DNA from: Candidatus Multivorans sp.
Lineage (GTDB): Bacteria > Acidobacteriota > Thermoanaerobaculia > Multivoradales > Multivoraceae
DNA length: 64,000 nucleotides
Reading direction: 5' to 3'
Assembly: GCA_965224025.1 (NCBI GenBank)
Contig: OZ245033.1
Span: forward strand, 2,656,001-2,720,000
Shown piece by piece: positions 38,995-56,952 of this stretch. The notes under the pieces were generated by a model. That model saw only the letters and a program-made list of their open reading frames with translations, searched no databases and was not told where the DNA came from. Made by a program: the position numbers and the translations under genes. Within the stretch, counting starts at the first letter, position 1, and each line of letters opens with the position of its first letter.

Positions 38995-40086
38995 ATGAGA
39001 ACGCATGAACGCTTGAACGTCGGATGGACTGTGGCTGTTGTCTCTGTACTGCTGGTTCTTGCCCTTTCCGGCGGCGCGACCGCTGCGGGCAACAACCCCA
39101 ACAACGCCGCCAAGGACGCCGACTGGACCATGCCCCGCACCGGTTCGGGCCACCCCGACCTCCAGGGAGTATGGGCGAACAACAACGCCACGCCGTTGCA
39201 GCGCCCCGCCGCCTGGGCCGGCAAGGAACGCCTGACGGACGCGGAGCTTCAGCAGTTGGTGGCCGCGGCGGCCGAGGCGACGAACCCGGGCGCCGACGCC
39301 CTGTTCGGCGACCAGCTCGTCCTGGCTGCCATCGCGCGCACCGAGGCCACCTCCTACGACCCGACGACCGGCAACTACAACCAGTTCTGGATCGCGGACC
39401 GGGATTGGACGAACCGCACGTCCCTGGTCATCAATCCGCCCGACGGCCTGATCCCGCCCTTCACCGAGCCGGCGAAGAAGCGTCTCTGCAAGCGGGTCAA
39501 GCACCTGATGGAGCACGCCGCCGACTCATGGCTGGACCGCCCGATTCCCGAGCGTTGCATCAGCTACGGCGCTCCCTTCATCTTCCCGGGCTACAACGGC
39601 TACCACCAGGTCTTCCAGAGCGAGGACCACGTCGTGATTCACCAGGAGATGATCCACGACGCGCGGGTCATCCCGCTCGACGGCCGGGCGCAACTGGACG
39701 AGGACGTGCGACTGTGGAACGGCGCCTCCCGCGGTCGCTGGGAGGGCGACACCCTGGTCGTCGAGACGACGAACTACTCGGAGAAGAACGACTTCATGGG
39801 CTCCTCCGAGCAGCTCGCGATCACCGAGCGCTTCACCCTCACCGGGCCGGAAACCCTGGAGTGGGAAATCACGGTCAGTGACCCGGGCACCTGGACCGAG
39901 CCCTGGACCGCGTCGATCCCGCTCAAGCGCACTGAGGACGCGATCTTCGAGTACGCCTGCCACGAGGGCAACTACGCCATGGAGGGCATGCTCGCCGGCG
40001 CCCGCGCGGAGGAGGCGTCGGACAAGCCGAAGCAGCTCGACCCCGGTGCCGCGTTCCGGTACCCCGGCCTGATCTGCGACTTCTGA
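38995..40086 (+). CDS. Conserved secreted hypothetical protein (PDLQGVW ... EYACHEGN type)
   Basis: Signal peptide; GHPDLQGVW, RTSLVINPPDG, ERCI, GRWEGDTLVVETTN, FEYACHEGNY. Confidence 0.8.
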   Translation: MRTHERLNVGWTVAVVSVLLVLALSGGATAAGNNPNNAAKDADWTMPRTGSGHPDLQGVWANNNATPLQRPAAWAGKERLTDAELQQLVAAAAEATNPGADALFGDQLVLAAIARTEATSYDPTTGNYNQFWIADRDWTNRTSLVINPPDGLIPPFTEPAKKRLCKRVKHLMEHAADSWLDRPIPERCISYGAPFIFPGYNGYHQVFQSEDHVVIHQEMIHDARVIPLDGRAQLDEDVRLWNGASRGRWEGDTLVVETTNYSEKNDFMGSSEQLAITERFTLTGPETLEWEITVSDPGTWTEPWTASIPLKRTEDAIFEYACHEGNYAMEGMLAGARAEEASDKPKQLDPGAAFRYPGLICDF

Positions 40087-40106
40087 TCGGTCCGACCTTT
40101 CGTTGA

Positions 40107-40275
40107 GCTTTCGGCTCCAGGCTCGCGCCAGAGCAGGGCCAACAGTGCCGAGGCATCGAGGAGGGCCCGAGTCACCTCAGTCTCGTGCCGCCTCCCGGCG
40201 TCGCTCGGCGATGAAGGCGTCGACTTCGCTTCCCGATGAACCTGTGCCGTACTTCCGAGCAAGCGCCTGGGCTTG
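40107..40275 (-). pseudogene. Remnant of a vapBC-type TA pair (antitoxin C-terminus plus PIN N-terminus)
   Basis: 40275-40177 reads QAQALARKYG...EVDAFIAERRREAARD*; GTG 40175 reads MTRALLDASALLALLWREPGAE, then similarity ends. Confidence 0.7.
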
Positions 40276-40430
40276 TCACGCGGAATGGTATGGCGCCCGG
40301 CTGTACCACGGGAGTGAGAGCAGCTGCCAGTCGCTTGGGCCAGCGGTCAGCACGGTGGAGGGACGGACGAGGGTGACCATACCGTCGCTCCACCGTGCGT
40401 CGCCCGTTGTCGGCGGGTCGGTCGACCCGG

Positions 40431-40727
40431 CTACATACAGATGGTCATGCTCTGGAAGGTCAGGTACATCCCGATGGCGGTCAAGACGGGGGAGCCGACA
40501 ACCTGGCCAGCGGTAGTAAACACCGCTCCGGCAACCGAGTTGGTCCTGCAACTGTGGCGCCGCGCTCCTCCGACCACGCTCGTCAGGTCGGTGGCCGTGA
40601 AGCGGTCGAGGCCATCGTGGCCGATAGTCGATGGTCCGCCCGCTGTCACGGCGTCAGGCGGTATGGCGAAGGAAGCGCCAACGTTCAACACCAGGGCGAT
40701 CAGTGCAATAGCTGAGAATCTCGTCAT
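40431..40727 (-). CDS. Small secreted precursor peptide 1 (signal + GG-type leader + Cys-bridged hydrophobic core)
   Basis: AAAGGA RBS; signal ending GASFA; leader GLDRFTATDLTSVVGG; core ending ICM; paralogous to 41918-42211. Confidence 0.72.
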   Translation of the reverse strand: MTRFSAIALIALVLNVGASFAIPPDAVTAGGPSTIGHDGLDRFTATDLTSVVGGARRHSCRTNSVAGAVFTTAGQVVGSPVLTAIGMYLTFQSMTICM

Positions 40728-40899
40728 GTCCAGGGTTCCTTTCGGTTGTAGAGGATTCGGCAGTCAAGCGGTGGAGGCGGCCGGTAGGCATCTCTCGGCC
40801 CACCTATGGACCAAGACGGAATGGGCGCGGCTGGATTCGTCTCGTGTCCTCGCGTTGCTCAAGGGAAGACGGGCTGCCCGGAAGGAGCGCTATGCATGT

Positions 40900-41592
40900 T
40901 CAGCCGCTGAGCATCTGCTCGCGGCGCTCCGCGCGGGCGAAGGTGAGCGCGATGATGGCGGTAATTATGAGCGCGTAGCCGATGCGGTTCCGGACGGCCA
41001 TCGCGAGCAACTGCTCAGCGTCGGCTCCTTCCACCGTGAGCGGGTTCCAGAACGGCGAAATGCGGAACAGGAACGGGAGTAGGGCAGGCACGCTGACGGC
41101 CAGGCCGAATAGCCCGATGGTTGCCAGGGCGCCGGAAGTCTCGCTGCGGAACAAGGCAGCGAAACCCATGGTCAGTGCCAGACAGAAGACGGCTCCTTGC
41201 GCGGCGCCGTAGAGGGTCTGGAAGACTGGAAAGGCGGTGAAGAATGCGAATGTGAGCACCGCCATCAGGCTCAGGCTGGCAAGCAGGATGAGGCCCGCGG
41301 CGGCGAGCTTCCCAAGCCAGACTCGATGGGCGCCGCCCGGTACGGTGTAGGCGATCTCCAGGGTGTGCTCGTCGAGTTCCCCGGCGATGATCCGGCCGCC
41401 CAGAAACACGGCAAGAGCCGACACCGGCATGCCGATCAGGATGTTCTGGGCTGCGGCGGGTTCAAACCCGGTCTGGCGGGCGGTAACCAGCAAGACCGCC
41501 TGCACGGCAAGCCACGGAAGCGGCAGCAGTGGCAGCAGCCAGTACCGCGGGCCCCCGAGCAGCACGGCGGAGAGACGGATGATGGTGATCAC
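40900..41592 (-). CDS. ABC-2 type permease-like membrane protein (paralog 2)
   Basis: About 6 TM segments; I.GELDEHTLEIAYTVPGG, FRISPFWNP; clearly paralogous to 42472-43161; GTG start 41592. Confidence 0.85.
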   Translation of the reverse strand: MITIIRLSAVLLGGPRYWLLPLLPLPWLAVQAVLLVTARQTGFEPAAAQNILIGMPVSALAVFLGGRIIAGELDEHTLEIAYTVPGGAHRVWLGKLAAAGLILLASLSLMAVLTFAFFTAFPVFQTLYGAAQGAVFCLALTMGFAALFRSETSGALATIGLFGLAVSVPALLPFLFRISPFWNPLTVEGADAEQLLAMAVRNRIGYALIITAIIALTFARAERREQMLSG

Positions 41593-41917
41593 GCCAGAGT
41601 TCCGAGGGTCGCCAGACCGGGGCGGACATGTTTGGGTTCGACGCCAAGGAGCGATTGCTGCGAAAGAAGAGTTGGGAGTGACGCGAGGGCGACGAATACC
41701 AGCGGTGTCCACGCGACGCAGCCGACCGCTGATCGGCGCGTCCGCGTCGTCAGAGGCCCGGCGGCCGGTCCGACGTGGCATCCCGGTTGGTTCACTGGAC
41801 GTCGCCCTCGCGCCCACGCGGGAGGAAGGATATTGGCCCACCGGCGCTCTCGGAAGAGAGAATCCTCATCAATACGATCGCGTGTAGACTCTCGGGTGGC
41901 GCCGGTGGAGAGATTGG

Positions 41918-42211
41918 TTACACGCAGATAGCACCGACAAGGCCGAGGCCGGCACCCTGCCCGATTGGATCCCCTGCGATGGTGGCGGCTACGAAGAGCA
42001 GGTAGCCGAGACCCTTGACGGCCAGAGTGCAAGCTCCCGACCGCCACCCTTCACCGGTCACGGCGACCATGTCGGCATCCGTGAGTTGTTCGAGCCCGGG
42101 ATTGTCCGCGCCCGATGTGTCGCCCGCCACGGCCGTGACAGGGGGTTCTGCGAAGGCGCCGCCGACGCTCAGCACAAGCGCTGCCACTGCGAGAGTTAGA
42201 ACTTTCTTCAT
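41918..42211 (-). CDS. Small secreted precursor peptide 2
   Basis: AAAGGA RBS; signal MKKVLTLAVAALVLSVGGAFA; leader GLEQLTDADMVAVTG; core ending ICV. Confidence 0.78.
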   Translation of the reverse strand: MKKVLTLAVAALVLSVGGAFAEPPVTAVAGDTSGADNPGLEQLTDADMVAVTGEGWRSGACTLAVKGLGYLLFVAATIAGDPIGQGAGLGLVGAICV

Positions 42212-42471
42212 GATTCCTGGTTCCTTTCCGTTTCATTGGTTTGTGTTGCCGTCGACCCCGTTCGGAGAGGCCGACGACGCTGGTAGGCGGTGAGGTCCGG
42301 CGGAAGCCGAGAAGGCTTCGCAGGTCCGGCGACCCGCAGCGCCTCGTGGCGCCGCAGGGACTGTGCCCGCCTATAGACCTAAGACGGAATTCGGAGCGGT
42401 TCTTGTCGCGAGGAACCTGAGAGGGGGGCTGGGTGGCGGTGGATGCGTGTCAGTCGATGGCGGAACCCGGC

Positions 42472-43161
42472 TCAGCCACCGAGCATCTTCTCCCGCCGTT
42501 CCGCTCGGGCGAAGGTAAGTGCCACGATGGCGACGATCGCGAGTGCGATGCCAATACGGTTCTGGACGCTCATGGCGAGCATCCGCGCCGCGTCGGCGTC
42601 CTCGATCGCGAGCGGATTCCATAGCGGCGAAATGCGGAACTGGATAGCGCCGAAGCTGGTGATCAAGCCGTTTAGGCCGAGGAGGCCGATCGTGGCCAGG
42701 GTACCGGCGACCTCGCTGCGGAACAGGGTGGCGAACCCCATCGCGGCAACGAGGTAGAAGACGACTCCCTGGCCCGCGCCGTAGAGGCTCTGGAGGACGG
42801 GGAAAGAGGTGAAGAAGGCGAACGAGACGGCCGCCATGAGAATCATGCTGGAGAGCAGGATCAGGATCGCGGCCGCGAGCTTGCTTAGCCAGACGCGATG
42901 GGCGCCTCCCGGCACGGTGTAGGCAATCTCCAGGCTGTGCTCGTCGAGTTCGCCTGTGATCGTCCGCCCACCCAGGAAGATGGCAAGGACTGCTACCGGC
43001 ACGCCGATCAGGGTGTTCTGGGCCGCCGCGGGCTCGAGCGTGGGCCGTCCCGCAAGCAGTAGCGCTGCCTGGATCGTCAGCCAAACGAGGGGCAGAAAAG
43101 GCAGCAACCAGTAGCGCCGCCCGGCCAGCAGCACCGCGGAGAGACGCAGCACGCCGATCAC
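42472..43161 (-). CDS. ABC-2 type permease-like membrane protein (paralog 1)
   Basis: About 6 TM segments; GELDEHSLEIAYTVPGG; GTGA-coupled to the upstream fusion gene. Confidence 0.85.
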   Translation of the reverse strand: MIGVLRLSAVLLAGRRYWLLPFLPLVWLTIQAALLLAGRPTLEPAAAQNTLIGVPVAVLAIFLGGRTITGELDEHSLEIAYTVPGGAHRVWLSKLAAAILILLSSMILMAAVSFAFFTSFPVLQSLYGAGQGVVFYLVAAMGFATLFRSEVAGTLATIGLLGLNGLITSFGAIQFRISPLWNPLAIEDADAARMLAMSVQNRIGIALAIVAIVALTFARAERREKMLGG

Positions 43162-46100
43162 GCCGGGGTTCCACCGCGCGCCGCCCGCGCCAGCCAGAGG
43201 TAGCCGTCCTCGAGCGTGGGTTCGACCGGTTCGGCGCGTTGATCGGGGCGATCCGCGGCCAGCACGCGCAGGCGGCTGCTGCCGTCGGGCTCGGGTTGGC
43301 GATCAGCGAGCACGGACGTCTGGGGCAGCTCCGGCTCTTCATCTCCGGGCGCCGTCCAGGACCAGACGCGGCCTTCTGCCTCCCGGGACAGCGCCGCCGG
43401 CTCGCCGTCGAACACCATGCGGCCGCCGGTGAGCACCAGCACGCGCTCGCAGGCCACGGCCACGTCCTCGACGACGTGGGTGGAGAAGAGGACGATGCGG
43501 TCCTTGGCCAGGCGCGAGAGCAGGTTGCGGAAGCGGACGCGCTCGCGGGGGTCGAGACCGACGGTCGGCTCGTCGACGACGATGATCGGCGGCAGGCGCA
43601 GCAGCGTGCGGGCCACCGCGACCCGCTGCCGCATGCCGCCGGAGTAGCCACCGATCGGTTCGTCCGCGCGCTCGTCGAGTCCGACCTCGCGCAGCAGGGA
43701 CGCAATGCGCTCGGCTCGCTCCGACGCCTCGATCTGGTAGAGCGCGGCGTAGTACTCGAGGTACTGGCGGGCCGTCAGGCGCGCCGGCAGGCCGGCGTCC
43801 TGCGGCAGGTAGCCGACGTAGCGGGCCAGCCGCTTCCGGACGCTGAGCAGCGGCACGCCGCCCAGCGTGATCCGGCCGCGGGTCGAATCGAGAATGCCGG
43901 TCACCTGGCGGAGCAGGGTCGTCTTGCCGGCACCGTTCGGACCCAGCACGCCGACCATGCCTCGCTCGACTTCGAAGCTCACCGCGGCCAGCGCCTTCAC
44001 CGTGTCGATCGGCAGGTCGAGGCCGAAGATCCGGCTTGCAACCGCGCGCCAGAGGCGGATCAACATGCCGCGCCAGCCCCGTGTGCGCCGCTGGCGCGCC
44101 TCTCGCTGCTCCCGGCGCACCGTCTCGAGGCGCGCCGTGCGACGTCCGAGTTGGATGAAGAGAGTGATGGTGGAGAGGATGGTCACGACGACGAACCCGC
44201 CCACCGCGGGTTCGCTCGCGAGAGCCGGACCGGCGAGGCCCGCGAGAAGCGCCCAGGGCAGCAGGGCGGACAGCACGCCCTCGATGCCGCCCGGCTCGAC
44301 TCGTCCGAGCGCGTCGGCCCGGCCACGGGCACGCCGGACCTCGGTCAGCAACCGGGAAGCGATCAGCAGTGCGGCGATCCAGGCGCCCAGTTGGATCAGG
44401 TCGGCACGAAACCTCAGAGCCATGGCGACCGCGCCGGCGAGCAACAGGAGCAACGGCGGGATGCATTCCCGCGCGTCGGCGGGGTGGAACGCTTCACCGC
44501 CGCGGTCGACCACCTGCCTGGCGAAATCGGTCGACGCCCGCAGCGCCCGGCGCACCGGTCCCGCGAGGCCGTATGTCTTGCGCAGGTGGCGGACCACGAG
44601 GCGGGGCGGTCCGGCGCCGGCCTCCGGCTCCGGCGTCGGCGGCTTCGGCACCAGCCACACGGCGAGCCCGAGCAGCGCGCCGGCGATGAGGACCGTCGTC
44701 GTGATCTGCCAAAGCATGGACTCGATCACGCCGAGCACGAACAACGGGGCGGTGGCCGCGATGACCGCGCCGAGCCAGGTCAGCACCATCCAGGGTCCGA
44801 CGCGGCTGAACAGGTCGTCCAGGCGGCGCAGAAAGACGTAGCCGACCGGGATGACGAGCAGCGTGAGCACGGTCGAGGTCAGAAGACCGCCGATCACGAG
44901 TGTCGCGAAGGGCGGCCAGATCTCGTTCTCGCGTCCGGTGGCGATGGCCAGCGGCGCCAGCGCCGCGATTGTTGTCGCGCTCGTCATCAGCACCGGACGC
45001 GCGCGCTCCCGAACCGCGGCCAGGGCGGCGGCGCCGGCGCTCCAGCCGGCGCCGAGTACACGCTGCTGCATCCGGTCGACGAGCAGGACGGCGGGATTCA
45101 CCGCCAACCCCAGCAGGACGAGCGCCCCGAGCAGCGCCATCGGATCGAGCCCGATGCCTGAGAACATGAGCACCCACAGCGAGCCGAGCAGGGCCAGCGG
45201 CAGGGCCAGCAGGACGAGGATCGGCAGGGTCATCGATTCGAACGCCACCGCCAGAACCAGGAACACGAGCATCACGACCGGGCCGAGGACGCGCCGGAAC
45301 CAGCTCGTGTTCTCGTCCGAGCGGTCGAGCTCGATTGTCGTTCCGGGCGGGCGGTGGACGCTGGCGAGGGCCTCGTCCAGGTTGCGGTCGAACTCCAGCC
45401 GGGCCGCTCCGCTGCTTGGTACGTCGGACGAGACGCTGTAGATGACCTCCCGCTCGCGGCGGCCGTTGTGGTGGGTGATCACCGGGGAAGCCGGCGCGCG
45501 GCGGACCTGCGCCAGCGCCGCCACCGGCAGCACGCCGGCGCCGGTGGAGACGCGCAGCCGGGACAGGCCACTGAGCGACACTTCGCGGTCAGGACTCATC
45601 CCGTCTTCGGGCGTCGCGTCGCTGGGCCGAGCTTCCAGGCGTTGGACGACGATCGGAAGCTCGCGGCCGCTCGGAAGCGGGAAGCCGCTGTTGATGCTCG
45701 TGCCCTCGCGGCCGGCGAGATTCAGCATCGGCAGCACATCGTCGAGCAGCACGCCGAAGGTGTCGAAAGCGCGCCGGTTCGGGCTGACGTGGATCTCCTC
45801 GGGGCCGGGTCGCGAGGAGGGGAAGGCGCCGCTGATCCCCTCGATCTCCTTCAGCCGCTCGGCAACCTCGGCAGCGAGACCGGTCAACTGATCGTTGTCG
45901 TTTCCGGACAGGATGACCTTTTGGGGGCCGCCGCCGAGCAACTCCTGGGCGCCGCCCCCGCCGCCGGGGCCGCCGCCGCGACCGCCCGGGCCTTCGCCTT
46001 CGCCGGGTCGCAGAATCTCGGTGCCGGCGCGCCGGTTCGCGGCCCTGCGTACGAGCTGACGGATTCGCCGCGCGGTCAGTTCCTCGGGACGGTCCTCGAG

Positions 46101-47975
46101 GGGCTCGAGGTGCACCGTCAACGAGCCCCCCTCCTCGCGGATCATGCTTTCGACGCGGTCCACACCGTCGACTTCATGAACCGCTTCCAGGGGCTGAAAG
46201 GCGCGCACCGCGGCATCGAGCGAACTGCGGCTCTCGTCGAGGCGCACCGAGAGCTGGACCTGGTCTGCGATTTCTGCGTCCGGCGACACCGTGTTTCCGA
46301 GCACAAAGGGCAGGGCCACGAGCGCGGTGACGACGACGGCGAGAGCCACCGACGTGACCCAGCTCGCGGGCCGCCTCAATGCCGAGGCGAGAACTCCCGC
46401 GAACAGGATGCGGGTCGGGTCGGGCGGCGCCTGTCCGGCGAAGCGTTCGCGTCGCCGGCGCAGTCGGTCCAGCCGGCGGATTGCCGCGGGCGCGGCCAGA
46501 TGGCGGGCCAGCAGCGGTACGAGACCGATCGCCACCAGCAGGGAACCGAACAGCGGCAGCAGGATCGAGAGGGCGGCGATCGCGATCAGGTTGCGGATGA
46601 ACGACGATCCCAGGTCGACGAGCAACGGCGGCACGAACACGACCGCGGTGGTCACCGACGCGGCGATGATCGCGCGGGCGGTGCGACGAATGCCCCCCGC
46701 CGCGGCGTCGTCGGGACTTCGTCCTCGTTCGAGGCGCCGCTGGACGGACTCGAAGACGACGACGCTGTTGTCGACCAGGAGGCCGACCCCGACCGCCAGG
46801 CCGAAGAGGCTGATCAGGTTCAGCGTCTGGCCCGCCAGATAGAGGAAAGCCAGGGCCGAGGCCAGACTGACCGGCACGGCGATGGCGACAACCGCCACTG
46901 CCCGCCACTGTCGGAGGAAAAGGAACAGGACGGCGAGAGCGATCAGGAAACCGGTCAGACCGAGTTTCTTGAGCCGGTCGATCTGGGTCTCGACGAGCTC
47001 CGCGGCGTCGAAGCTGCTCAGCAGGCGAATGCCCAGCGGCTGGAGATCTTCGTTGATCTCTTCGATTCGGCGGCGGAGGTCGCGGCCGAGGCGAACCAGG
47101 TTCGCACCCTCTTCCTGGAGCACCATGACTCCGACCGAGGGGTCGCCGTTGACCCGGAACAGCGTTTGCCGCCGGCCGGGGCCGACCTCGATTTCGGCGA
47201 CGTGGCGCACCAGGGCCGGCCGGTCCGGCACGATCCGGACTTCGCCCATGGACACCGGCCCGATCGGGCGGCCGTCGAGCATCACCGCCATCCTCCCGGC
47301 CTCGTCCTCCAGGCTGCCGAGGTAGCGCAGGCGGCCGGCCGCGGCGCGCACCGCCGCCGTCACCTGCTCCGTGGTGACGCCGAGCGCGGCACAGCGGTTC
47401 GGGTCGACCCAGACGGTCAACTGGCGCGCCGCGCCGCCGCCGACCATCGCCTGGCTGACGCCCGAAACCGCGGCCAGCCGCGGAGTGACGAGTTCGTCGA
47501 CCAAACCGCGCAGGGCGTTCTGATCGGCCGCGCCGGTGACCTGCAGAACCATGGCGAAACTGGAAAGAAAGCCGGTGTCCTGGGACTGGACATCGAGGAA
47601 GGCATTCCGCGGCTGGGTGCGGGCCAGGTCCGCGGCGATCCGGCGCACCTCCAGCTCGCGCACCTTCAGGTCGACGCCACGCTCGAAGAGGATCGTGAAG
47701 CTGCCGCCGGAGCCGATGACCTCGCCCCAGGTTTCGGCGACCCGCGGCAGGGTCCGTACCCGGGCCTCCAGAGGCATCAGGATCTCCCGCTCGATGGTCT
47801 CCGGTTCGCTGCCCGGGCGGAAGAAGTTGACGTAGAGCTGGTCGCCGGTCAGGGCGGGGAAGAGTTCCACCGGCAACCTTTGCCATGCGAACAGCCCCAT
47901 GATCACCAGCCCCAGGAAGAACATCGCCACGGCGACGGGGCGGCGAATGGCGAGGGTGTCGAGACCGGCTCTCAC
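43158..47975 (-). CDS. RND (AcrB-like) permease fused to a C-terminal ABC ATPase
   Basis: RRPVAV, LPVELFP, GLLVDNSVVV, RARPVLMTS; then GPNGAGKTT, SGGMRQR, VDEP and STH in one 1605-aa ORF. Confidence 0.9.
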   Translation of the reverse strand: MRAGLDTLAIRRPVAVAMFFLGLVIMGLFAWQRLPVELFPALTGDQLYVNFFRPGSEPETIEREILMPLEARVRTLPRVAETWGEVIGSGGSFTILFERGVDLKVRELEVRRIAADLARTQPRNAFLDVQSQDTGFLSSFAMVLQVTGAADQNALRGLVDELVTPRLAAVSGVSQAMVGGGAARQLTVWVDPNRCAALGVTTEQVTAAVRAAAGRLRYLGSLEDEAGRMAVMLDGRPIGPVSMGEVRIVPDRPALVRHVAEIEVGPGRRQTLFRVNGDPSVGVMVLQEEGANLVRLGRDLRRRIEEINEDLQPLGIRLLSSFDAAELVETQIDRLKKLGLTGFLIALAVLFLFLRQWRAVAVVAIAVPVSLASALAFLYLAGQTLNLISLFGLAVGVGLLVDNSVVVFESVQRRLERGRSPDDAAAGGIRRTARAIIAASVTTAVVFVPPLLVDLGSSFIRNLIAIAALSILLPLFGSLLVAIGLVPLLARHLAAPAAIRRLDRLRRRRERFAGQAPPDPTRILFAGVLASALRRPASWVTSVALAVVVTALVALPFVLGNTVSPDAEIADQVQLSVRLDESRSSLDAAVRAFQPLEAVHEVDGVDRVESMIREEGGSLTVHLEPLEDRPEELTARRIRQLVRRAANRRAGTEILRPGEGEGPGGRGGGPGGGGGAQELLGGGPQKVILSGNDNDQLTGLAAEVAERLKEIEGISGAFPSSRPGPEEIHVSPNRRAFDTFGVLLDDVLPMLNLAGREGTSINSGFPLPSGRELPIVVQRLEARPSDATPEDGMSPDREVSLSGLSRLRVSTGAGVLPVAALAQVRRAPASPVITHHNGRREREVIYSVSSDVPSSGAARLEFDRNLDEALASVHRPPGTTIELDRSDENTSWFRRVLGPVVMLVFLVLAVAFESMTLPILVLLALPLALLGSLWVLMFSGIGLDPMALLGALVLLGLAVNPAVLLVDRMQQRVLGAGWSAGAAALAAVRERARPVLMTSATTIAALAPLAIATGRENEIWPPFATLVIGGLLTSTVLTLLVIPVGYVFLRRLDDLFSRVGPWMVLTWLGAVIAATAPLFVLGVIESMLWQITTTVLIAGALLGLAVWLVPKPPTPEPEAGAGPPRLVVRHLRKTYGLAGPVRRALRASTDFARQVVDRGGEAFHPADARECIPPLLLLLAGAVAMALRFRADLIQLGAWIAALLIASRLLTEVRRARGRADALGRVEPGGIEGVLSALLPWALLAGLAGPALASEPAVGGFVVVTILSTITLFIQLGRRTARLETVRREQREARQRRTRGWRGMLIRLWRAVASRIFGLDLPIDTVKALAAVSFEVERGMVGVLGPNGAGKTTLLRQVTGILDSTRGRITLGGVPLLSVRKRLARYVGYLPQDAGLPARLTARQYLEYYAALYQIEASERAERIASLLREVGLDERADEPIGGYSGGMRQRVAVARTLLRLPPIIVVDEPTVGLDPRERVRFRNLLSRLAKDRIVLFSTHVVEDVAVACERVLVLTGGRMVFDGEPAALSREAEGRVWSWTAPGDEEPELPQTSVLADRQPEPDGSSRLRVLAADRPDQRAEPVEPTLEDGYLWLARAARGGTPA

Positions 47976-47988
47976 GTCGCCTTCCGGT

Positions 47989-50900: not shown

Positions 50901-51183
50901 CGGTGCGGGCCACCTGGTGAACCTCGCGGAGGCCGCGCACCGTGAACAGGCGCTGCTCGACCTGCTCGCCGTAGAGCCGCTCCATCTCGGTCGGCGGCCG
51001 GTCGCCGGAACGCACGGCGACGACGATGGTCGGCGAACGCAGGTCGGGCAGGAGGTCGATCGGCAGTTCGCGCCACGACATCCAGCCCACCAGGGCGAAG
51101 GCCAGGGCGGTGACGGTGACCGCTACGGGCCGGCGCGCAGCCAGGCGGGCGGGACCGAAGGTCTCACCGGATGTTCGAGTCAT
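47989..51183 (-). CDS. RND (AcrB-like) efflux permease
   Basis: RRPVAV, LPIDLLP, GMLVDNAIVVVE, RLRPILMTT. Confidence 0.93.
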   Translation of the reverse strand: MTRTSGETFGPARLAARRPVAVTVTALAFALVGWMSWRELPIDLLPDLRSPTIVVAVRSGDRPPTEMERLYGEQVEQRLFTVRGLREVHQVARTGRLIATVRFDWDADMDLALIEVQKAVNPVAADPEVDEVLVRQLDPRQSPVITLGLAAEPEGPDLAELRRLARRQVAPAMEQLADVAEVRVLGGRDLEVRVRVDRYRLQAFGVTLNQLEQRLVAENVDIDAGTLEDGGQVYLVRGISRFRNSRDVERVVVRYRTQQVGGGQQVRQPIRVSDVAEVELAHAEIDHLVRVNGREGVGLQVFKEAGANTVEVSRTVRAALDDLERDLPRVSVSMVNDDAALVEDAMDDLLNAALIGIALAVVVLALFLRSLGPTVVVASAVPVSLFVALFAMRLWEHSLNIITLAGLALGAGMLVDNAIVVVESIHRRHRPGASAADTAARGTGEVAGAIAASTLTTCVVFLPVLFVQGLAARLIEGIAFTVTASLGASLAVAIMLIPALSRWLLPRAKPETAAPEATEEASEAATTGTTADPDEDEARPLGWAFGAVERLVLSLLRLRWLVVATAVLAAAGGVHVLLGLGSELLPPADPRQFSVRMVGPPGQRVEATAGAVATLEEAVRQAAGEHLEAIQAEVGRLPEDDRLVTTELTEENTARLLVRMSAEGPTGGQIVAALQPNFEDLPGTEIEWEVGASALSRALGSAGPPIVVEIAGQSLPDLRLAATRLRDALAAQSELWNVRSSFEGGPPELRIELDRAMADGLGVGLETIARVLQSALDGRRVTLLSTGDEERHVVLSLPQPRPEELAELRFTSNAGADLALGQVARFVPAEGAREVFRRDQRRVAQVTARVAEDSDYPRAVAAAGEAIAATDLPSGLGVRLAGEEEERERAVGELRWAGLLALVLVLMVLAGTFESLLQPLTVLFSIPLALVGVACTLGFLGRPVGVMALLGLIVLAGVAVNDAVLLIATARRLLAAGMERHAALARAAAIRLRPILMTTLTTVLVLAPLALGAGEAAELRSPMAYTIIGGILTSTVGSLLVLPCLYLILDSMRLTRRRRAPAGA

Positions 51184-51222
51184 CGTGCCGGGCTCCGGTG
51201 GTCAGAGCTGCCGAATCGGCTC

Positions 51223-52329
51223 CTATTGGGAGACCCGGACGCGTGTACCGTCGGTCAGGGTCTCGAGACCGCGTACGACGACCCGCTCGCCGAGCTCGAG
51301 CCCCTGGCGAATCTCGGTGATCTCGTCGTCGCCGAGGCCGAGAACGACTTCGCGCCGCACCGCGCGCTGGCCGTCGAGGACGAAGACGACGCGCCGGCCG
51401 CCGCGCTCGGTAACCGCCTCGCGCGGAATGACGGGGACGTCGTTTCGCTGCTCGACGACCAGGGTCACTTCGACGAACATGCCCGGCCGCAGCAGGCCGC
51501 CGGGATTGCGCACGGCGACCTCGGCGCGGAAGGTGTGGGCGACCGGGTCGACCTCGGGGGACAGGCGAACGACCGCGCCTGCGAACGTCTGGCCCTCCCA
51601 GGCGAAGTGCCTGAGCCGGCCCTGCTGCCTGGGGTGGACCCGCGCCAGTTCGGGGCCCACGAGGTCGATGTCGGCGACCAGGGAGTCGACCGGAGCGATC
51701 CGGGCCACCTGGAAGCCCTGGGAGACGAGCTGGCCGTCGGCGATCGGCATGCCGTTCGGGTCGCGCGCGAGTTCCATCAGCACACCGCCGATCGGAGTCA
51801 GCATCTTCGCGCGGTCCTCGGTCAGGAGGCTCTGCTCCCAGGTCGCCTTCGCGTCCTCGAGCGCGATCTCGGCGCGGCGCAGTTCCTCGGCACTGATCAG
51901 TTCCTGCTCGAACAGCTTGGCGCGGGCGTCTCGTTCGGCCTCGGCGCCCAGGTAGGCCTGGTGGGTTGCTTCGACCCGGGCCGCAAGGCGTGCGTCCTCG
52001 CCGGTGACCTCCGCGATCATCTGGTCGGGGACGACGCGGTCGCCCTCGGCCAGCCGGTCGCCGGAACCGTTGCGGCCGATCAGCAGTCTCCCGGGCGTTT
52101 CGACCTGCAGGACGATGCTCTCGGCCGCTCGCAGAGTGCCGGTGGCGACGATCAGATCCTCGACGCTGCCGGTTTCGACCTCGGCCGCGGTGACCGGCAC
52201 CAGGAAGTCGACGGGGTCCGTGCTGCCGCCGCCTTCGCAGGCGACGATCGCGGCGCAGGCCGCAATCGCAATTGCGAGGCCCGCGCGCCGGAAGTTGGCG
52301 GTCGGGCGGGATGGCTGCCGCGCGCTCAT
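51223..52329 (-). CDS. RND periplasmic adaptor (MFP), lipoprotein
   Basis: Lipobox IVAC; TPIGGV, LRPGMFV, VIPREAV, GLELGERVVVRG; ATGA overlap with the upstream gene. Confidence 0.92.
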   Translation of the reverse strand: MSARQPSRPTANFRRAGLAIAIAACAAIVACEGGGSTDPVDFLVPVTAAEVETGSVEDLIVATGTLRAAESIVLQVETPGRLLIGRNGSGDRLAEGDRVVPDQMIAEVTGEDARLAARVEATHQAYLGAEAERDARAKLFEQELISAEELRRAEIALEDAKATWEQSLLTEDRAKMLTPIGGVLMELARDPNGMPIADGQLVSQGFQVARIAPVDSLVADIDLVGPELARVHPRQQGRLRHFAWEGQTFAGAVVRLSPEVDPVAHTFRAEVAVRNPGGLLRPGMFVEVTLVVEQRNDVPVIPREAVTERGGRRVVFVLDGQRAVRREVVLGLGDDEITEIRQGLELGERVVVRGLETLTDGTRVRVSQ

Positions 52330-55300
52330 GGCCCCGCGCCCCCGGTCTCGGCACGGCCGGCGGCGGCGCCGTTGTCGAGCCGCACGAAGCGCACGGCGTC
52401 CGCGGCGACCGCTCTGCCGGAGGTCTCGTCGCTCAGGACCAGTTCGGTCGGGCCGCCGGCCAGATCGAAGTCTCCGAGCACCGCCCATCCGGTTCCCGCG
52501 GCCGCGGCGTCGAAGTCGATCGGCCGGGAGACGCCGCCGTTCTGCAGTTCGAGGTCGTAGGTACCGAGATTCAGGCCCAGGTTCACCGAGATCCGCACGC
52601 CGTCGCCGTCGTTCCCTCTTCGCTGAGCGTTTCCTCCATCGTTGCCGACCCGCACTTCCCGACGCACGCCCGCGGCGCCGGCTGGCAGCGGCGAGAGCGA
52701 CGGTACGTGCAGTTCGACTCGCCAGCGGCCGTCTGCCGGCAACTCCGTCCGGTAGATCGCGCGGCTGGTCCCTTCGCCCGCTGGCGCCAGGGCGGTCGTG
52801 CGGCGGTAGCGCCCCCAACTCGTGGGCTGTTCGTAGCGCGACCATTCTGTCGGCGTTCCGCCGAAGCTCTGGTAAACGAGCAGGCCCTGATCCGTCTGGT
52901 TCGACGGTGCGAAGAAGCCGGCGAGACCGCCCTGCAGCCGGAAGCCGCCGGTATCCGCTTCATCCGTCTCGATCGAGAAGCCGGGGTCCAGGTCGTCGAC
53001 GACGACCATGTCGGTCGCTGATCGCAGGAAGGCGGGCAGCCAGTCGGCCGGTCGCGTGCCGCGTAGCGGTTCGGCCTCGACGATCGATTCGTCGTCGACA
53101 TCAGGCAGATCGATCGGGAACTCCCGGCGGTTCAGCGACAGATACGGGGAAGCGAGCATCCTGCCCGGCGCCCTGGACGTGACCAGGCCGAATTCGACGG
53201 AGGTGTTTCCCGGGATCAGAGTTGGCTCGCTGGTCTCCCAGCGCACCCCGCTCGGTGCGCGAACGGCGTAGCGGAGCCGGAAGAGGCCGGGCGCTTTCTC
53301 GCCGTTGTGGACGAAGAGACGGGTCTGGTACTGCGGCAGGCCCTGGTCGTCGTCCGCCAGCCGCACGAGTTCGGCTGCGGAGACGACGAAGCCGGGCAGG
53401 TCGGTCTGGTGGAGGAAGTCGCCGACCAGGCCGGCGAGGTCCACGCCGGCTTCCTGAGCGGCCCGTTCGAGGTCGGCGGCGGTGAAGGTCGAGCCCCGGT
53501 GGTCGCGCATGAGGTTGGCGATCATCGCGGCGGTCCGTTCCCGGCCGGCGCCGTCCAGGATTGCGGTGGCCAGGGCCGAGGTCTTCAGGTAGAGCGCGTT
53601 GAGCGCCTTCTTCGGCTCCTCTTCGACCTCCATTTTCGTCAGCGAGGCGCCGAGCACGGCGTCCCAGACTTCGGGGCGGTCCGTGAGGCTCCTCACGATC
53701 GAACTGGAGATGGGTGCGCCGCCTCCGCCGAGCTGGCCCAACACGGCGCCCTGTACCACGCTGCCGATCGTCCAGCCGAACTCGCGGTCGAACAGGTGGG
53801 CCGAGAAGTACGATTCGCCGCCGCTCACCAGCCGGTTCACCAGGTTGTTGCACAGTTCGTCGAGCGCCAGCGCCTCCGGACCGCGGGCGGCGGTCTGATA
53901 CAGGAACAGGTTGCGGATGCCGCCCACCTCCACGTTGCCGCCCGAGAAGTCGTTGCGGAAGAACTGCTGCAGTCTGAAGGCCTTTGCCCGCGCCAGACCG
54001 CCCTCCTGCTCCTCGAACTGCTCAGGGTTGCGGAACGGGAACTCGAAGCGAGCGGTCGGCAGGCTGCTCTCGCTGATCAGCACCATGCCCGGCGGTGCGC
54101 GCTCGGTGTCCATGCGCCAACCGCCGCCGTAGGAACGCAGCGTCCAGGGCACTTCGACCAGGGTGAGTTGGCGGTAGGGGTAGGGCAGACCGAGCTCGCG
54201 GGCAGTGGCGAAGCGCTCGGCGGCGACCGCTTCGATCTCTTCCCTGGCATCGGCGAAGAACTCCACGTTTCTGAGATGGCGGGGGTGGACGAGCAGTTCG
54301 ATCTCGACGCCCTCGATCTCCGTCGTCCGGCGATCGAACCGTCCGGCGATCAGGGCCGCTTCAGGCACGACCCCCACCGGTGCGAACCGTTGCCGGTCGC
54401 CTGCCGCCTCGCCTCTGCCTGGCCCGGCGACCGTCCAGCCCGAGGGGGCGCCGACCTCCAGGTCGAGTTCGAAGAAGTCTCTGGGACGCCTTCGCGGATC
54501 GGCGAGGCCAACTGAAGCGCCGGGGCGTGGCAGCCAGGCCAGCGCGGCGGGCAGCGCGACGTAGCGACGCTCCGCAAAGCCGTTCAGGGCGCCGAGAATG
54601 ATGATCTGCGCGTCCTGGAACTTGATCCGGTTGAAATCGATCGCGGAATCCAGGTGGGCGAAGCGAAGGTCAGGCCGTCCGTGGGCGCGCAGGCGAAGGT
54701 CGACGGCTTGGCCCGCGGCCTGCGAGCGCCCGAGGTCGACTTCGAGCAGGCCGGCGCCGTGGTTGAAGGCGAGCGGCGCGCCGGCAGAGTCCTCGACGGC
54801 ATCGACGTCAAGGCCGGGGTTCAGGCTGAAGAGGGCCCGCGAACCTCCGGCGGCGAGGAACCGGACGTTGACGTCGAGGGTCAGACGACCCCGCGGTTCG
54901 ATGTCGACGGAGCCGTGGATCCGCTCCAGGTCAAGGACCGGTTCCTCCTGACGTTCCGCGTGGGCGATCCGCCAGTCGTCGATCTCGTCGACCTGGTTGG
55001 TGGCGGTCACCGCGGCGGCCGCGATCGTGCCGATGGCCGCGACCAGAAGGCCGGCGCCGGCGGTGGCCCACAGGCGTCGCCGGGCGTCGTCGAGCCGGGG
55101 ATGGACGGCGACGGCGACCGCAAGCAGACCAACGGCCAGCGCCGCGACCGTGGCCCGGTTCATCAGGTTCAGGGCGGTCCATATCTGGGGCGCGACTTCG
55201 GACGGATTGCTGCCGAAGCCGCCCTGGAGCGACAGGATGGGCAGGATGTAGGTCGGTACGCGGAAGGAGAGAATCCATGGACCGATGGCCAGCCCGAGGC

Positions 55301-55874
55301 CAAGAAGCGCGGCCACCAGGCGGTTGCGGCTCAGGAGCGACGCCACCTGGACGAAGGCGATGGTCATGGCCAGCGCCGGCAGCGCCTCGGTCAGCAGGTA
55401 GGCCCAGACGGAACTCCAGATCGCCGGTTCGCCCACGTACCAACCGAGCGCCACTCCGAGATGGCCGAAGCCCTGGATGAGCATCATGCCGATGAAGGCG
55501 ACGCCCCAGATCAGGATCAGGGCGCCCAGGAACCTGCCCAGGACGAGTTCCGCGTTCGAATAGGGCCGGCTGTCCAGGACCTCGATCACGCGGTCGCGCC
55601 GGTCCCGTGCGCGCACGTCGAAGGCCAGAAAGACGACGCCGATCGCCAGGACCATCGTCTGGATCGAACCCATCTGGGCGAGCAGGAACTTCGGGCTGAA
55701 CGAGCCGACCGTCGCCGACCAGGACGAGAAGAGGCCGTGGATAGCCCAGTAGTAGCCGTACGACAGCAGGCCGATGAGGATTGCAAGGCCCGAGAACAAC
55801 CAGAAGCGGAACAGCCGGCGGATGGTGCGCATCTCGGCGCGGGCCAGGGACCAGACGGCGGCGAGTGAGATCAC
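52326..55874 (-). CDS. ABC permease fused to a degenerate M1-aminopeptidase-like ectodomain and a C-terminal carbohydrate-binding-like beta domain
   Basis: About 7 TM segments with RDRRDRVIEVLDSRP; FSLNPGL, PYPYRQLTLVEVP, YLK; no HExxH; tail GWAVLGDF...AADAVRFV; GTG start 55874. Confidence 0.78.
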   Translation of the reverse strand: MISLAAVWSLARAEMRTIRRLFRFWLFSGLAILIGLLSYGYYWAIHGLFSSWSATVGSFSPKFLLAQMGSIQTMVLAIGVVFLAFDVRARDRRDRVIEVLDSRPYSNAELVLGRFLGALILIWGVAFIGMMLIQGFGHLGVALGWYVGEPAIWSSVWAYLLTEALPALAMTIAFVQVASLLSRNRLVAALLGLGLAIGPWILSFRVPTYILPILSLQGGFGSNPSEVAPQIWTALNLMNRATVAALAVGLLAVAVAVHPRLDDARRRLWATAGAGLLVAAIGTIAAAAVTATNQVDEIDDWRIAHAERQEEPVLDLERIHGSVDIEPRGRLTLDVNVRFLAAGGSRALFSLNPGLDVDAVEDSAGAPLAFNHGAGLLEVDLGRSQAAGQAVDLRLRAHGRPDLRFAHLDSAIDFNRIKFQDAQIIILGALNGFAERRYVALPAALAWLPRPGASVGLADPRRRPRDFFELDLEVGAPSGWTVAGPGRGEAAGDRQRFAPVGVVPEAALIAGRFDRRTTEIEGVEIELLVHPRHLRNVEFFADAREEIEAVAAERFATARELGLPYPYRQLTLVEVPWTLRSYGGGWRMDTERAPPGMVLISESSLPTARFEFPFRNPEQFEEQEGGLARAKAFRLQQFFRNDFSGGNVEVGGIRNLFLYQTAARGPEALALDELCNNLVNRLVSGGESYFSAHLFDREFGWTIGSVVQGAVLGQLGGGGAPISSSIVRSLTDRPEVWDAVLGASLTKMEVEEEPKKALNALYLKTSALATAILDGAGRERTAAMIANLMRDHRGSTFTAADLERAAQEAGVDLAGLVGDFLHQTDLPGFVVSAAELVRLADDDQGLPQYQTRLFVHNGEKAPGLFRLRYAVRAPSGVRWETSEPTLIPGNTSVEFGLVTSRAPGRMLASPYLSLNRREFPIDLPDVDDESIVEAEPLRGTRPADWLPAFLRSATDMVVVDDLDPGFSIETDEADTGGFRLQGGLAGFFAPSNQTDQGLLVYQSFGGTPTEWSRYEQPTSWGRYRRTTALAPAGEGTSRAIYRTELPADGRWRVELHVPSLSPLPAGAAGVRREVRVGNDGGNAQRRGNDGDGVRISVNLGLNLGTYDLELQNGGVSRPIDFDAAAAGTGWAVLGDFDLAGGPTELVLSDETSGRAVAADAVRFVRLDNGAAAGRAETGGAGP

Positions 55875-55888
55875 TGTCGGGCCCTCCT

Positions 55889-55917
55889 GGGAACGCGGGC
55901 GTCTCGCCCGCATCCGG
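55889..55917 (+). repeat. REP-like family B copy
   Basis: gggaacgcgggcgtctcgcccgcatccgg inside the export operon. Confidence 0.85.
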
Positions 55918-55944
55918 CTCGGGGCCAGACCACGGCGAGCGGCA

Positions 55945-56952
55945 TCACGGTTGAGCCTCCTTGCCGGACACGCCTCCGTCGGGTGGCGCTGTTGCGCCGG
56001 GAGACCCTGGGCCCTCCAAGTCTTCGGCAAGTCCGGCGCCTTCGCTCTCGCCGAAGTGCTTCTCGGTCACGATGGCCTCGGCGCGGCCGCGCGCGACCAT
56101 GAAGGCGAGGTATCCCTCCTCGAGGGTCGGCGACGAGGCGATCCGGGCGTCCGCCGGCACGCCGCCGGGCGCCGCGACGCCGCGGTAGGTCGTTTCGTTC
56201 ATGCTGGCGGTGCGCGAGACGATCTCGAAGCCGCCCTCGGGTTGCGGCGCGGATGTCGGCAGGGTCAGCTCGAAGACTTGGCCCTGGGCGCGCTCGAGCA
56301 GGCCTGACGGAGAGCCGCGAAAGACGATCTTGCCCGCGTCGAGCAGGGCGAGGTCGCTGCAGCCGGTACCCAGGTCGGCGACGATGTGGGTAGAGAGGAT
56401 GATCGTCCGTTCGCGGCCGAGGTTCGCCATCAGTTGGCGGAAGCGCAGGCGCTCCTCGGGATCCAGGCCGACCGTGGGTTCGTCGACCACCAGCAGGCGG
56501 GGTTGGTGGATCAGCGCCTGGGCGATGCCGAGGCGGCGGGTCATGCCGCCGGACAGCTTCTTCACCTTGCGGTGGGCGACCTCGCCGAGGCCGACGCTGT
56601 CGAGGACGGAGTCGACCCGGGCCCGGCGGGCGCCGCGGCCGTCCAGGCCCGAGAGCTCGGCCAGGGTGTCGAGGACTTCCTCCACGCGGTGCAGGCGCCA
56701 GGCGCCGAACTCCTGCGGAAGGTAGCCCAGGTGTGCGCGGACGCCGCGTCGCTGAGAGACCACGTCGTGGCCGAAGACCGTTGCCGCCCCGCCGCTGGGC
56801 TTGAGCAGCGTGCAGACGATCCGCATCAGGGTGCTCTTGCCGGCGCCGTTGGGGCCCAGCAGACCGAAAAGGCCGGCGCCGATCTCCAGATCGACGCCGT
56901 TGAGGGCTACTGTGCCGCCGCGATAGACGTGGCGGAGGCCGCGGGCGGCCAC
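55945..56952 (-). CDS. ABC transporter ATP-binding protein
   Basis: GPNGAGKST, LSGGM, VDEPTVGLDPEER, STH, PTLEEGYL. Confidence 0.94.
   Translation of the reverse strand: MAARGLRHVYRGGTVALNGVDLEIGAGLFGLLGPNGAGKSTLMRIVCTLLKPSGGAATVFGHDVVSQRRGVRAHLGYLPQEFGAWRLHRVEEVLDTLAELSGLDGRGARRARVDSVLDSVGLGEVAHRKVKKLSGGMTRRLGIAQALIHQPRLLVVDEPTVGLDPEERLRFRQLMANLGRERTIILSTHIVADLGTGCSDLALLDAGKIVFRGSPSGLLERAQGQVFELTLPTSAPQPEGGFEIVSRTASMNETTYRGVAAPGGVPADARIASSPTLEEGYLAFMVARGRAEAIVTEKHFGESEGAGLAEDLEGPGSPGATAPPDGGVSGKEAQP

Follow-up and report, generated by a model that had tools for sequence, protein, structure and literature searches.

Sec-signal, double-glycine-type peptides at the tail of a hybrid RND/ABC operon in Candidatus Multivorans and a candidate periplasmic route for their maturation

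Class II bacteriocins and microcins (e.g., microcin V) carry their leader at the extreme N-terminus, have no Sec signal, and are exported by an ATP-binding cassette (ABC) transporter fused to a C39 peptidase (peptidase-containing ABC transporter, PCAT) together with an adaptor and TolC. For the Pseudomonas Fap amyloid system, a C39 protease that is exported by Sec and works in the periplasm has been reported (FapD; PMC5557850), and enterotoxin STII is reported to pass through Sec, then DsbA, and then MacAB-TolC from the periplasm (PMC5985334). The present analysis concerns a nine-gene operon (g1 to g9) of Candidatus Multivorans sp. (Acidobacteriota/Thermoanaerobaculia; assembly GCA_965224025.1, contig OZ245033.1, positions 2,656,001-2,720,000), this whole 64,000-nucleotide stretch of ~69% G+C being called the window. 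The operon encodes, in order, an ABC ATPase, an ABC-2 permease joined to a pseudo-M1 domain, a periplasmic adaptor, a resistance-nodulation-division (RND) permease, an RND permease fused to an ABC ATPase, and two small permeases (g6 and g8) alternating with two small peptides (g7 and g9). The reading favored overall, in which about as much confidence as doubt is placed, takes g7 and g9 as Sec-exported, C39-cut, disulfide-looped peptides of the bacteriocin or microcin kind that are tied to the RND/ABC exporter.

The peptide family and the standalone C39 peptidases

The two peptide genes, g7 (41918..42211, minus strand) and g9 (40431..40727, minus strand), encode prepropeptides of 97 and 98 aa that belong to one family (33% identical, E 4e-12), the former being preceded by the ribosome-binding site (RBS) GAAAGGAAC. 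The original prediction had credited them with a Sec signal and a double-glycine-like leader, and this agrees with both sequences, in which a Sec-like signal appears to be followed by a leader with fitting hydrophobic and acidic spacing. In g7, the Sec-like signal covers residues 1-21 (ending ..GGAFA before EPP), the GG-type leader (..LEQLTDADMVAVTGEG) comes next, and Cys61 and Cys96 lie in the Gly-rich, hydrophobic core behind it; the signal of g9 ends ..VGASFA before IPP, and its leader (..LDRFTATDLTSVVGG) is followed by ARRHSC...TICM. Neither g7 nor g9 matched a family in Pfam or NCBIfam, the two collections used for domain assignment, and an ESM Atlas search with g7 returned unnamed clusters only, with scores of 0.86 or less. 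Orthologs of g9 in relatives are 55-78% identical.

An alignment of 43 unique sequences of the family, g7 and g9 included, revealed that G53, C61, and C96 are invariant. Exactly two cysteines are present in 39/43 members, the first 3-8 aa past the Gly and the second 1-2 aa from the C-terminus, and an AxA-like site plus xP lies behind a basic, hydrophobic N-terminus in 35/43. Signal and Gly motif are separated by a leader stretch of ~30 aa and followed by a variable Gly-rich hydrophobic core of 40-47 aa. In the consensus for double-glycine leaders, positions -4, -7, -12, and -15 are hydrophobic, -8 is acidic, and -2 is Gly. With the invariant Gly as -2 (43/43), the family shows V/L/A/I/F at -4 (mostly V/L), L/M/I at -7 in 43/43, D/E at -8 in 39/43, L at -12 in 37/43, and L/V/F/I at -15 in 29/43 (with P there in 11), a spacing that fits this consensus. 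Position -1 is held by G (17), A (8), R (9), E (5), or K (4; n = 43), and the following residue is G/A in 35/43, therefore the cut could fall one residue further on. Pooled dN/dS values were 0.32 for the signal, 0.57 for the leader, and 0.64 for the core (54 mutually non-independent pairs), by which the peptide genes look coding and constrained, with the core changing fastest.

The window's nine proteins were mapped on the loci of relatives by tblastn and tallied, with loci termed near where g5 has at least 70% identity (n = 29) and distant where it has 47-59% identity (n = 51). An iterated profile applied to all six-frame open reading frames (ORFs) of 100 loci and the window identified 64 peptide ORFs, all of them within loci of the genus, with peptides at 21/28 near loci vs. 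0/38 distant loci; nine genus loci were also without them. At the genome level, the family was identified in 34/42 genomes of the genus, and in these nearly all of its members lie at the operon tail or beside a g5 paralog. A word-indexed search gave 34 clusters at E ≤ 0.01, and an exhaustive profile search of 1.84 billion representative proteins gave 32 matches at E ≤ 0.001 (27 at E ≤ 1e-10), all but one of 89-117 aa and the weakest of 276 aa. The expectation of the original prediction that homologs of the RND-ABC fusion would generally be accompanied by such peptides fails for the six-gene core (g1 to g6), and since operons outside the genus are without peptides, the six-gene machine is not a dedicated exporter of them.

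The peptide genes alternate with small ABC-2-type permeases, g6 (229 aa; 42472..43161, minus strand; weak Pfam match of 1e-3, below cut-off) and its paralog g8 (230 aa; 40900..41592, minus strand; weak Pfam match of 5.7e-5, below cut-off), which are 68% identical (E 5e-92). Extra copies of the small permease are confined to genus loci, near loci having one to four copies, and exactly one is found behind g5 in 42/45 distant loci. Together, peptides and additional permease copies form a narrow addition specific to the Candidatus Multivorans lineage.

Both peptide genes are preceded by a motif of 18-19 nt, TCCGTCT(N1-2)GRTCYATAGG, of which a pattern scan identified exactly two copies in the 5.14-Mb genome. 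The 19-nt copy TCCGTCTTAGGTCTATAGG (42370..42388, minus strand) lies 177 nt 5' of the g7 ATG and the second copy TCCGTCTTGGTCCATAGG (40803..40820, minus strand) 93 nt 5' of the g9 ATG. The reversed motif, scanned as a control, had no match in the genome; a gapless form caught one of the two copies, the form with a 1-2 nt gap caught both, and a loose form was present 5' of 21/43 family genes in relatives. The motif may be a dedicated promoter or regulator site. A promoter scan of 40200-43300 identified no sigma-70-like site and two terminator-like sites vs. 1.6 expected.

The window had been predicted to lack a C39 peptidase transporter, and the genome's only two Peptidase_C39 domains indeed both lie elsewhere, in open frames of 269 and 282 aa (Pfam 1.6e-28 and 2.4e-31). 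Inspection of all C39 domains identified no C39-ABC fusion in the genome, and neither domain has the PCAT architecture, in which C39 is the N-terminal cytoplasmic domain of an ABC exporter. Cytoplasmic C39-ABC processing in this genome was ruled out, as no such fusion is encoded. One C39 domain is physically linked to the peptide family: the third family peptide of the genome, 670 kb away, has directly 5' on the same strand a 214-aa ORF that is a Peptidase_C39 (1.6e-28). This island (L124:8000-11200; own genome, around G000:C1:3368000-3371200) fails a third-codon-position G+C (GC3) filter that is passed by neighboring genes and contains transposase-like fragments, which hints at recent acquisition. 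The other C39 copy (2.4e-31) is part of a conserved cluster (L137:7061-14324; own genome G000:C1 ~1803060-1810323) in which it stands behind a membrane-anchored CxxC Redoxin-like gene and before three ORFs with a signal, a GG/GA motif, and Cys, followed by a 540-aa membrane protein without a Pfam match, an ABC ATPase, and a Yip1-domain protein. Among the three small ORFs, one is of a Pro/Cys-rich type (..PIPFPRPWPPGGP..) unlike the window's peptide family.

Linkage of C39 with small peptides extends across the genus, in which C39 homologs were identified in 42/42 genomes. At 15/15 C39 loci scanned (L138 and L068 being the same sequence), one to four ORFs of 72-154 aa lie within 1.5 kb downstream on the same strand, each with a signal-like start and a Cys-bracketed Gly/Ala-rich core and most with a GG/GA motif. 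Each of the 16 unique C39 copies starts with a basic segment and a single hydrophobic helix, behind which the Q..DCG(P/A)AAL motif with the catalytic Gln and Cys is intact, and the 14 copies covered that far also have HGDHFVV-like and DDP motifs; because of the basic N-terminus and the single helix, the C39 domain should face the periplasm under the positive-inside rule. Standalone C39 proteins with the same N-terminal anchor and 36-48% identity were found in other metagenomes (13/13 inspected), and one of them, P0245, is fused C-terminally to a Gly/Ala-rich hydrophobic tail resembling the peptide cores.

C39 and the family peptides are also linked to the transporter itself. In G020, the main operon itself contains a C39 gene and peptides in its tail, and in G031 and G036 the order lone g5 paralog, C39, family peptide was found, flanked by genes of IS21 type (L028, L051, L052). 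At two of these loci (L051:462-9087 and L052:7307-15516), the g5 paralog (78% identical), C39, and peptide stand beside istA/istB-like ORFs that were read as an IS21-type insertion sequence, and the cassette looks mobile or transposed.

The RND-ABC fusion and its conserved operon

Nine same-direction genes had been proposed, and nine ORFs were read on the minus strand from 56952 to 40431, with both expected coupled junctions present as an ATGA overlap (g2/g3) and a GTGA overlap (g5/g6). As g1 is preceded by an unrelated gene of divergent orientation and g9 is followed by a convergent one, the unit was taken to extend from g1 to g9. Its most unusual member, g5, is a single uninterrupted ORF (43158-47975, 1605 aa) holding an RND domain and an ABC ATPase. 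The N-terminal part (residues 1-1049; 44829..47975, minus strand) is an RND permease module (ACR_tran 1.2e-141 at residues 8-1049), and the C-terminal part (43158..44828, minus strand) has six extra predicted transmembrane (TM) helices and the ATPase (ABC_tran 6.7e-27 at residues 1331-1471), which would stay cytoplasmic as the number of extra helices is six. An AlphaFold2 model of residues 1040-1605 (pLDDT 78.2) gave the helix and strand order of linker and ATPase: the last RND helix is followed by two helices, one beta-strand, four long helices, and the remaining ATPase, such that the first beta-strand of the ATPase (..LVVRHLRKTYG..) is split in the model from the rest by ~190 aa holding the four helices.

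The fusion is real and conserved across many taxa, as the original prediction required. A query with linker and ATPase retrieved 1341 proteins at E ≤ 1e-3 among 8000 scored, and nearly all of the best 120 of these are 1570-1640 aa long and contain both the RND and the ABC Pfam domains. In a pattern scan of one genome per species, 509 relatives were identified among 594 candidate stretches; the best 80 of the 509 are full-length with 47-95% identity and come from Candidatus Multivorans, Vicinamibacterales, Pseudomonadales and other Gammaproteobacteria, Desulfatiglans, Desulfobacteraceae, a Planctomycetia bin, and others. The linker is conserved in the alignment, and the ABC ATPase motifs GPNGAGKTT, SGGM, and DEPT are invariant. 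A full-length match was present in 36/36 same-genus genomes drawn, and in the 24 genomes from other families of the order no match spanned the linker from the beginning. As homologs with the same length and domain content are numerous, a frameshift or an error of assembly was rejected as the source of the fusion. Some g5 homologs (P0063, P0068, and P0070; 1840-1876 aa) additionally contain Pfam domains for sigma-70 region 4 (PF04545, PF08281) within one polypeptide.

The partner RND permease, g4 (1064 aa; 47989..51183, minus strand; ACR_tran 3.5e-198), has MdtB (9lyq) among its best PDB matches, and the RND pair gave NCBIfam matches to MdtB/MdtC. It is preceded by the periplasmic adaptor (membrane fusion protein) g3 (368 aa; 51223..52329, minus strand; RND_mfp TIGR01730 3.1e-45, above cut-off; HlyD_D23 3e-15), and the set of g3, g4, and g5 thus has the 12-TM ACR_tran permease and adjoining adaptor gene of RND systems. 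The AcrB-type proton relay consists of Asp-Asp in TM4 and Lys in TM10. By sequence alignment, neither g4 nor g5 has this set: TM4 reads LVDNAIVV in g4 and LVDNSVVV in g5, with D-N in place of D-D, and the TM10 Lys of solved multidrug pumps aligns with Asn in both (..VAVNDAVLL.. in g4, 48019-48486; ..LAVNPAVLL.. in g5, 44826-45278), the Asn being next to Asp in g4 and Pro in g5. The TM11 Arg is retained.

Two further genes open the operon. The DrrA/GldA-like ABC ATPase g1 (335 aa; 55945..56952, minus strand; Pfam ABC_tran 3e-29) matched drrA (2.3e-57) and GldA (4.6e-53) in NCBIfam, each below its own cut-off, and its first position in the cassette is conserved in the loci of relatives. The ATPases of g1 and g5 contain Walker A, signature, and Walker B motifs and are accompanied by separate polytopic permeases, as in ABC-2 exporters, with the g6 and g8 permease matches being weak. 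The second gene, g2, occupies an open frame of 52326-56030 with a likely GTG start at 55874 (AGGAGG 8 nt upstream), giving an 1182-aa protein (52326..55874, minus strand) that combines an ABC-2 permease (ABC2_membrane_2 2.5e-7), a pseudo-M1 domain, and a Golvesin_C-like domain (Golvesin_C 7.3e-9) that closes the protein in 14/14 orthologs. Seven TM helices are predicted in the permease part from sequence reading and model helices, therefore the large domain is predicted to be periplasmic.

The M1 fold without its catalytic motifs, as put forward in the original prediction, is supported by the model of g2. An AlphaFold2 model from 14 orthologs (pLDDT 80.5, pTM 0.76) gave 188 Foldseek matches at E ≤ 0.001, led by IRAP (4z7i, E 9.8e-16, ~640 columns) and including ERAP1, PfA-M1, and the lanthipeptide peptidase EryP (7v9o, 1.6e-14); alignments with M1 aminopeptidases covered ~630-670 columns with TM-scores of 0.36-0.48 on target length. 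The relationship needed the fold search, as the g2 profile had one weak collinear match among PDB sequences (6a8z, E 0.029) and g2 had no Pfam Peptidase_M1 match at E ≤ 1. The M1 family is marked by the zinc site HExxH(18)E and the exopeptidase motif GxMEN. HExxH and GxMEN are present in 0/14 g2 orthologs, the segment homologous to GxMEN reading YGGGWRMD. The pseudo-M1 domain is 34-45% identical in 11/13 aligned orthologs, which come from distant loci lacking the peptide family.

Genes g1 to g4 precede g5 in 23/24 near loci with enough upstream sequence, the exception being a lone paralog, and in 27/35 such distant loci (exceptions L070, L082, L094, L096, L104, L112, L114, and L118). This recurrence in near and distant loci argues that the arrangement is not due to chance. 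The core g1 to g6 is collinear in Acidobacteriota, Gammaproteobacteria, Desulfobacterota, and others, and an outer membrane factor gene (OEP 6.7e-43) is next on the same strand after g6 in 7/51 distant loci; for these two reasons, the core resembles an exporter of the tripartite type to which two ABC-2 modules are joined. None of the genome's 13 OEP matches lies inside the window, in line with the predicted lack of TolC. The six-gene core is a separate, much older unit than the peptide addition.

Behind the operon tail, several relatives (e.g., at L138:7839-8186) have a gene for an antitoxin of the MazE/AbrB type (Pfam 9.9e-6) together with a PIN-like ORF; what is left in the window is a short ORF at 39972-40262 (minus strand), without a Pfam match, that resembles the first part of the PIN-like protein.

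The proposed export route and competing explanations

Under the favored reading, g7 and g9 would be precursors of small, membrane-active peptides that are looped by a disulfide and belong to the class II bacteriocin or microcin kind. The N-terminal signal would carry the precursor through Sec, a periplasmic, membrane-anchored C39 peptidase from elsewhere in the genome would cut behind the double-glycine-type leader at the presumed cleavage site, and a periplasmic thiol-disulfide oxidoreductase would pair the two invariant cysteines into a looped product of ~42 aa. The exporter would consist of the heteromeric RND pair g4 and g5, the adaptor g3, and an unlinked outer-membrane duct, with two ABC-2 modules formed by g1 with g2 (which contributes a non-catalytic M1-fold periplasmic domain) and by the g5-borne ATPase with g6. 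At the 3' end of this operon, the lineage would have gained the peptide genes, which bring an upstream motif of their own, together with additional small permeases. The small permeases may capture specific peptides from the periplasm or the outer leaflet and hand them over to RND, adaptor, and duct. The RND/ABC machine would then expel the mature peptide or keep it away from the membrane of the producer, and because the peptide would mature outside the inner membrane, secretion and self-protection would be one act. What the sequences and models show is the gene content, the fusion and its conservation, the M1 fold lacking catalytic motifs, the architecture of the peptides and how it is conserved, and the linkage of C39 genes to such peptides and to a g5 paralog, whereas Sec export, the cleavage site, the disulfide, any part in transport or immunity, and energy coupling are inferred. 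A broader combination, considered doubtful, is that a heteromeric RND trimer tied via six helices to an ABC-2 transporter forms one machine driven by both ATP and the proton gradient, with a non-catalytic M1-fold domain as its periplasmic substrate receptor, and thereby a class of envelope exporter not known before, and that it serves as this lineage's exit and self-protection route for a novel kind of bacteriocin matured by Sec, periplasmic C39, and thioredoxin-assisted disulfide formation. If true, the periplasmic C39 route would be the topological reverse of the classical cytoplasmic C39-ABC pathway.

Several observations weigh against the favored reading. The core is kept without such peptides at 38/38 distant and 7/28 near loci, which argues that the peptides are not its general substrate. 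Permeases and peptides are not strictly paired, as the combinations of permease and peptide numbers at near loci include two with one (seven loci), two with none (two loci), one with two (one locus), and none with one (one locus), and the cassette of lone g5, C39, and peptide has no small permease. On the processing side, R, E, or K at -1 in 18/43 members is atypical for C39 substrates and makes the cleavage site uncertain; no C39 gene lies within the window; and co-occurrence is uninformative because C39 is present in 42/42 genomes, including eight without a family peptide. The Redoxin match of the C39-linked gene is below the Pfam cut-off (24.1 vs. 26.6 bits).

The main rival, considered unlikely yet the strongest of the alternatives, is that the peptide genes are merely lodged behind an exporter of a lipid, glycolipid, or small molecule and that other genes handle peptide export and immunity. 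The same 38/38 distant and 7/28 near cores without peptides speak for it, as do the Golvesin_C-like domain in 14/14 g2 orthologs and the peptides' own conserved motif and RBS, which suggest separate transcription; in addition, the C39 locus L137 holds its own ABC ATPase and membrane proteins, and the ABC ATPase, Yip1-domain protein, and 540-aa membrane protein there are examples of candidate handlers. It is, however, countered by three forms of association with the transporter: the gain of peptides accompanies duplication of one transporter gene, the small permease; nearly all family members in 34/42 genomes are at the operon tail or beside a g5 paralog; and a g5 paralog travels with C39 and peptide in the IS21-flanked cassette.

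The mechanism of the original prediction, in which the M1-like g2 domain would bind or process the Sec-exported peptides and an ATP-assisted RND pump would then release them, is improbable. A periplasmic domain with an M1 aminopeptidase fold, matches that include a lanthipeptide leader peptidase (EryP), and a shared operon with the peptides count in its favor. However, catalysis by the M1 mechanism is unlikely since HExxH and GxMEN are missing in 14/14 orthologs, the domain is conserved at distant loci without the peptide family (0/38), and the leader motif is of C39 type, with standalone C39 genes adjoining such peptides. The claim of peptide processing by this domain was therefore not upheld, and the anchored standalone C39 appears the better processing candidate.

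Double-glycine leaders serve peptide pheromones too, small membrane proteins can modulate RND pumps, and the C-terminal half of the peptides is hydrophobic enough for a membrane helix, but it is similarly improbable that the small proteins are membrane-anchored accessory or regulatory transporter subunits or secreted signaling peptides rather than cleaved bacteriocin-like products, as accessory subunits would be expected wherever the core occurs (yet 0/38 distant loci have them), a most variable core beside an invariant leader Gly and two invariant Cys is the pattern of a processed secreted peptide, and the peptides adjoin C39 genes.

Relation to described systems

All components of the operon belong to known families, and it is their combination that has two unusual features. 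The architecture had been predicted to be undescribed, and no report of an RND-ABC fusion was found in the literature, judged partly by titles and abstract openings; a search judged mostly by titles found nothing on Sec-signal double-glycine-leader peptides with periplasmic C39 processing beyond FapD, and nothing was found on Candidatus Multivorans. By their energy source, RND pumps and ABC transporters are assigned to different classes of efflux machine, and here both are present in one polypeptide. As g5-type homologs are full-length at 47-59% identity in Acidobacteriota, Gammaproteobacteria, Desulfobacterota, and others, they pose a question of energy coupling and assembly and offer a structural target. 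The Sec-signal double-glycine peptides, outward-facing C39, and thioredoxin-like partner together suggest a periplasmic maturation route for bacteriocin-like peptides, one that would escape genome-mining tools designed around C39-ABC transporters. Because the anchored standalone C39 extends beyond the genus, such a route may not be confined to the Multivorans lineage.

Among peptide systems, g7 and g9 resemble class II bacteriocins and microcins in the leader spacing, the small Gly-rich hydrophobic core with a predicted disulfide, the C39-family peptidase as the likely processing enzyme, and the setting of an adaptor and tripartite pump. They differ in that the leader is preceded by a Sec-like signal and has R, E, or K often at -1, in that the genome has no C39-ABC fusion and its C39 is separate and predicted to face the periplasm, and in that the neighboring pump is an RND/ABC-2 hybrid. 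The precedents of FapD (PMC5557850) and STII (PMC5985334) make the steps of Sec export, periplasmic C39 cleavage, and pump expulsion plausible by analogy. Like FapD, the C39 proteins identified here are standalone, would be exported by an N-terminal signal, and would act in the periplasm on Sec-exported partners; in contrast, FapD serves amyloid secretion via FapF, its substrate being unsettled (PMC5557850), and the C39 here has a thioredoxin-like partner and precedes arrays of small Cys peptides with a GG motif. As for STII, a small precursor would pass through Sec, acquire a periplasmic disulfide, and undergo tripartite expulsion across the outer membrane, whereas MacB is a type VII ABC transporter and not an RND protein, and STII has neither a GG leader nor a C39 step (PMC5985334).

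Among transporters, the locus shares with MdtABC two adjoining paralogous RND genes, one adaptor gene, and an unlinked duct, and differs from it in that one RND paralog is extended by six TM helices and an ABC ATPase, that the operon includes two ABC-2 modules, and that, compared with solved pumps, both paralogs have D-N in TM4 and Asn for Lys in TM10. The NCBIfam model for lantibiotic protection ABC ATPases (TIGR03740) matched g1 (1.6e-33) and the g5 ATPase (2.4e-30), both below cut-off, and similarity with ABC-2 immunity and export systems of the LanFEG type also includes the DrrA-like ATPases and the separate small six-helix permeases adjoining peptide genes; unlike in these systems, the ATPase is fused to an RND protein and the permease paralogs appear to share it. 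Finally, g2 has in its model the multi-domain fold of M1 metallopeptidases including EryP (~630-670 columns, E ~1e-15 to 1e-14), but differs from them in having neither HExxH nor GxMEN, in its fusion behind a 7-TM ABC-2 permease, and in its Golvesin_C-like end.

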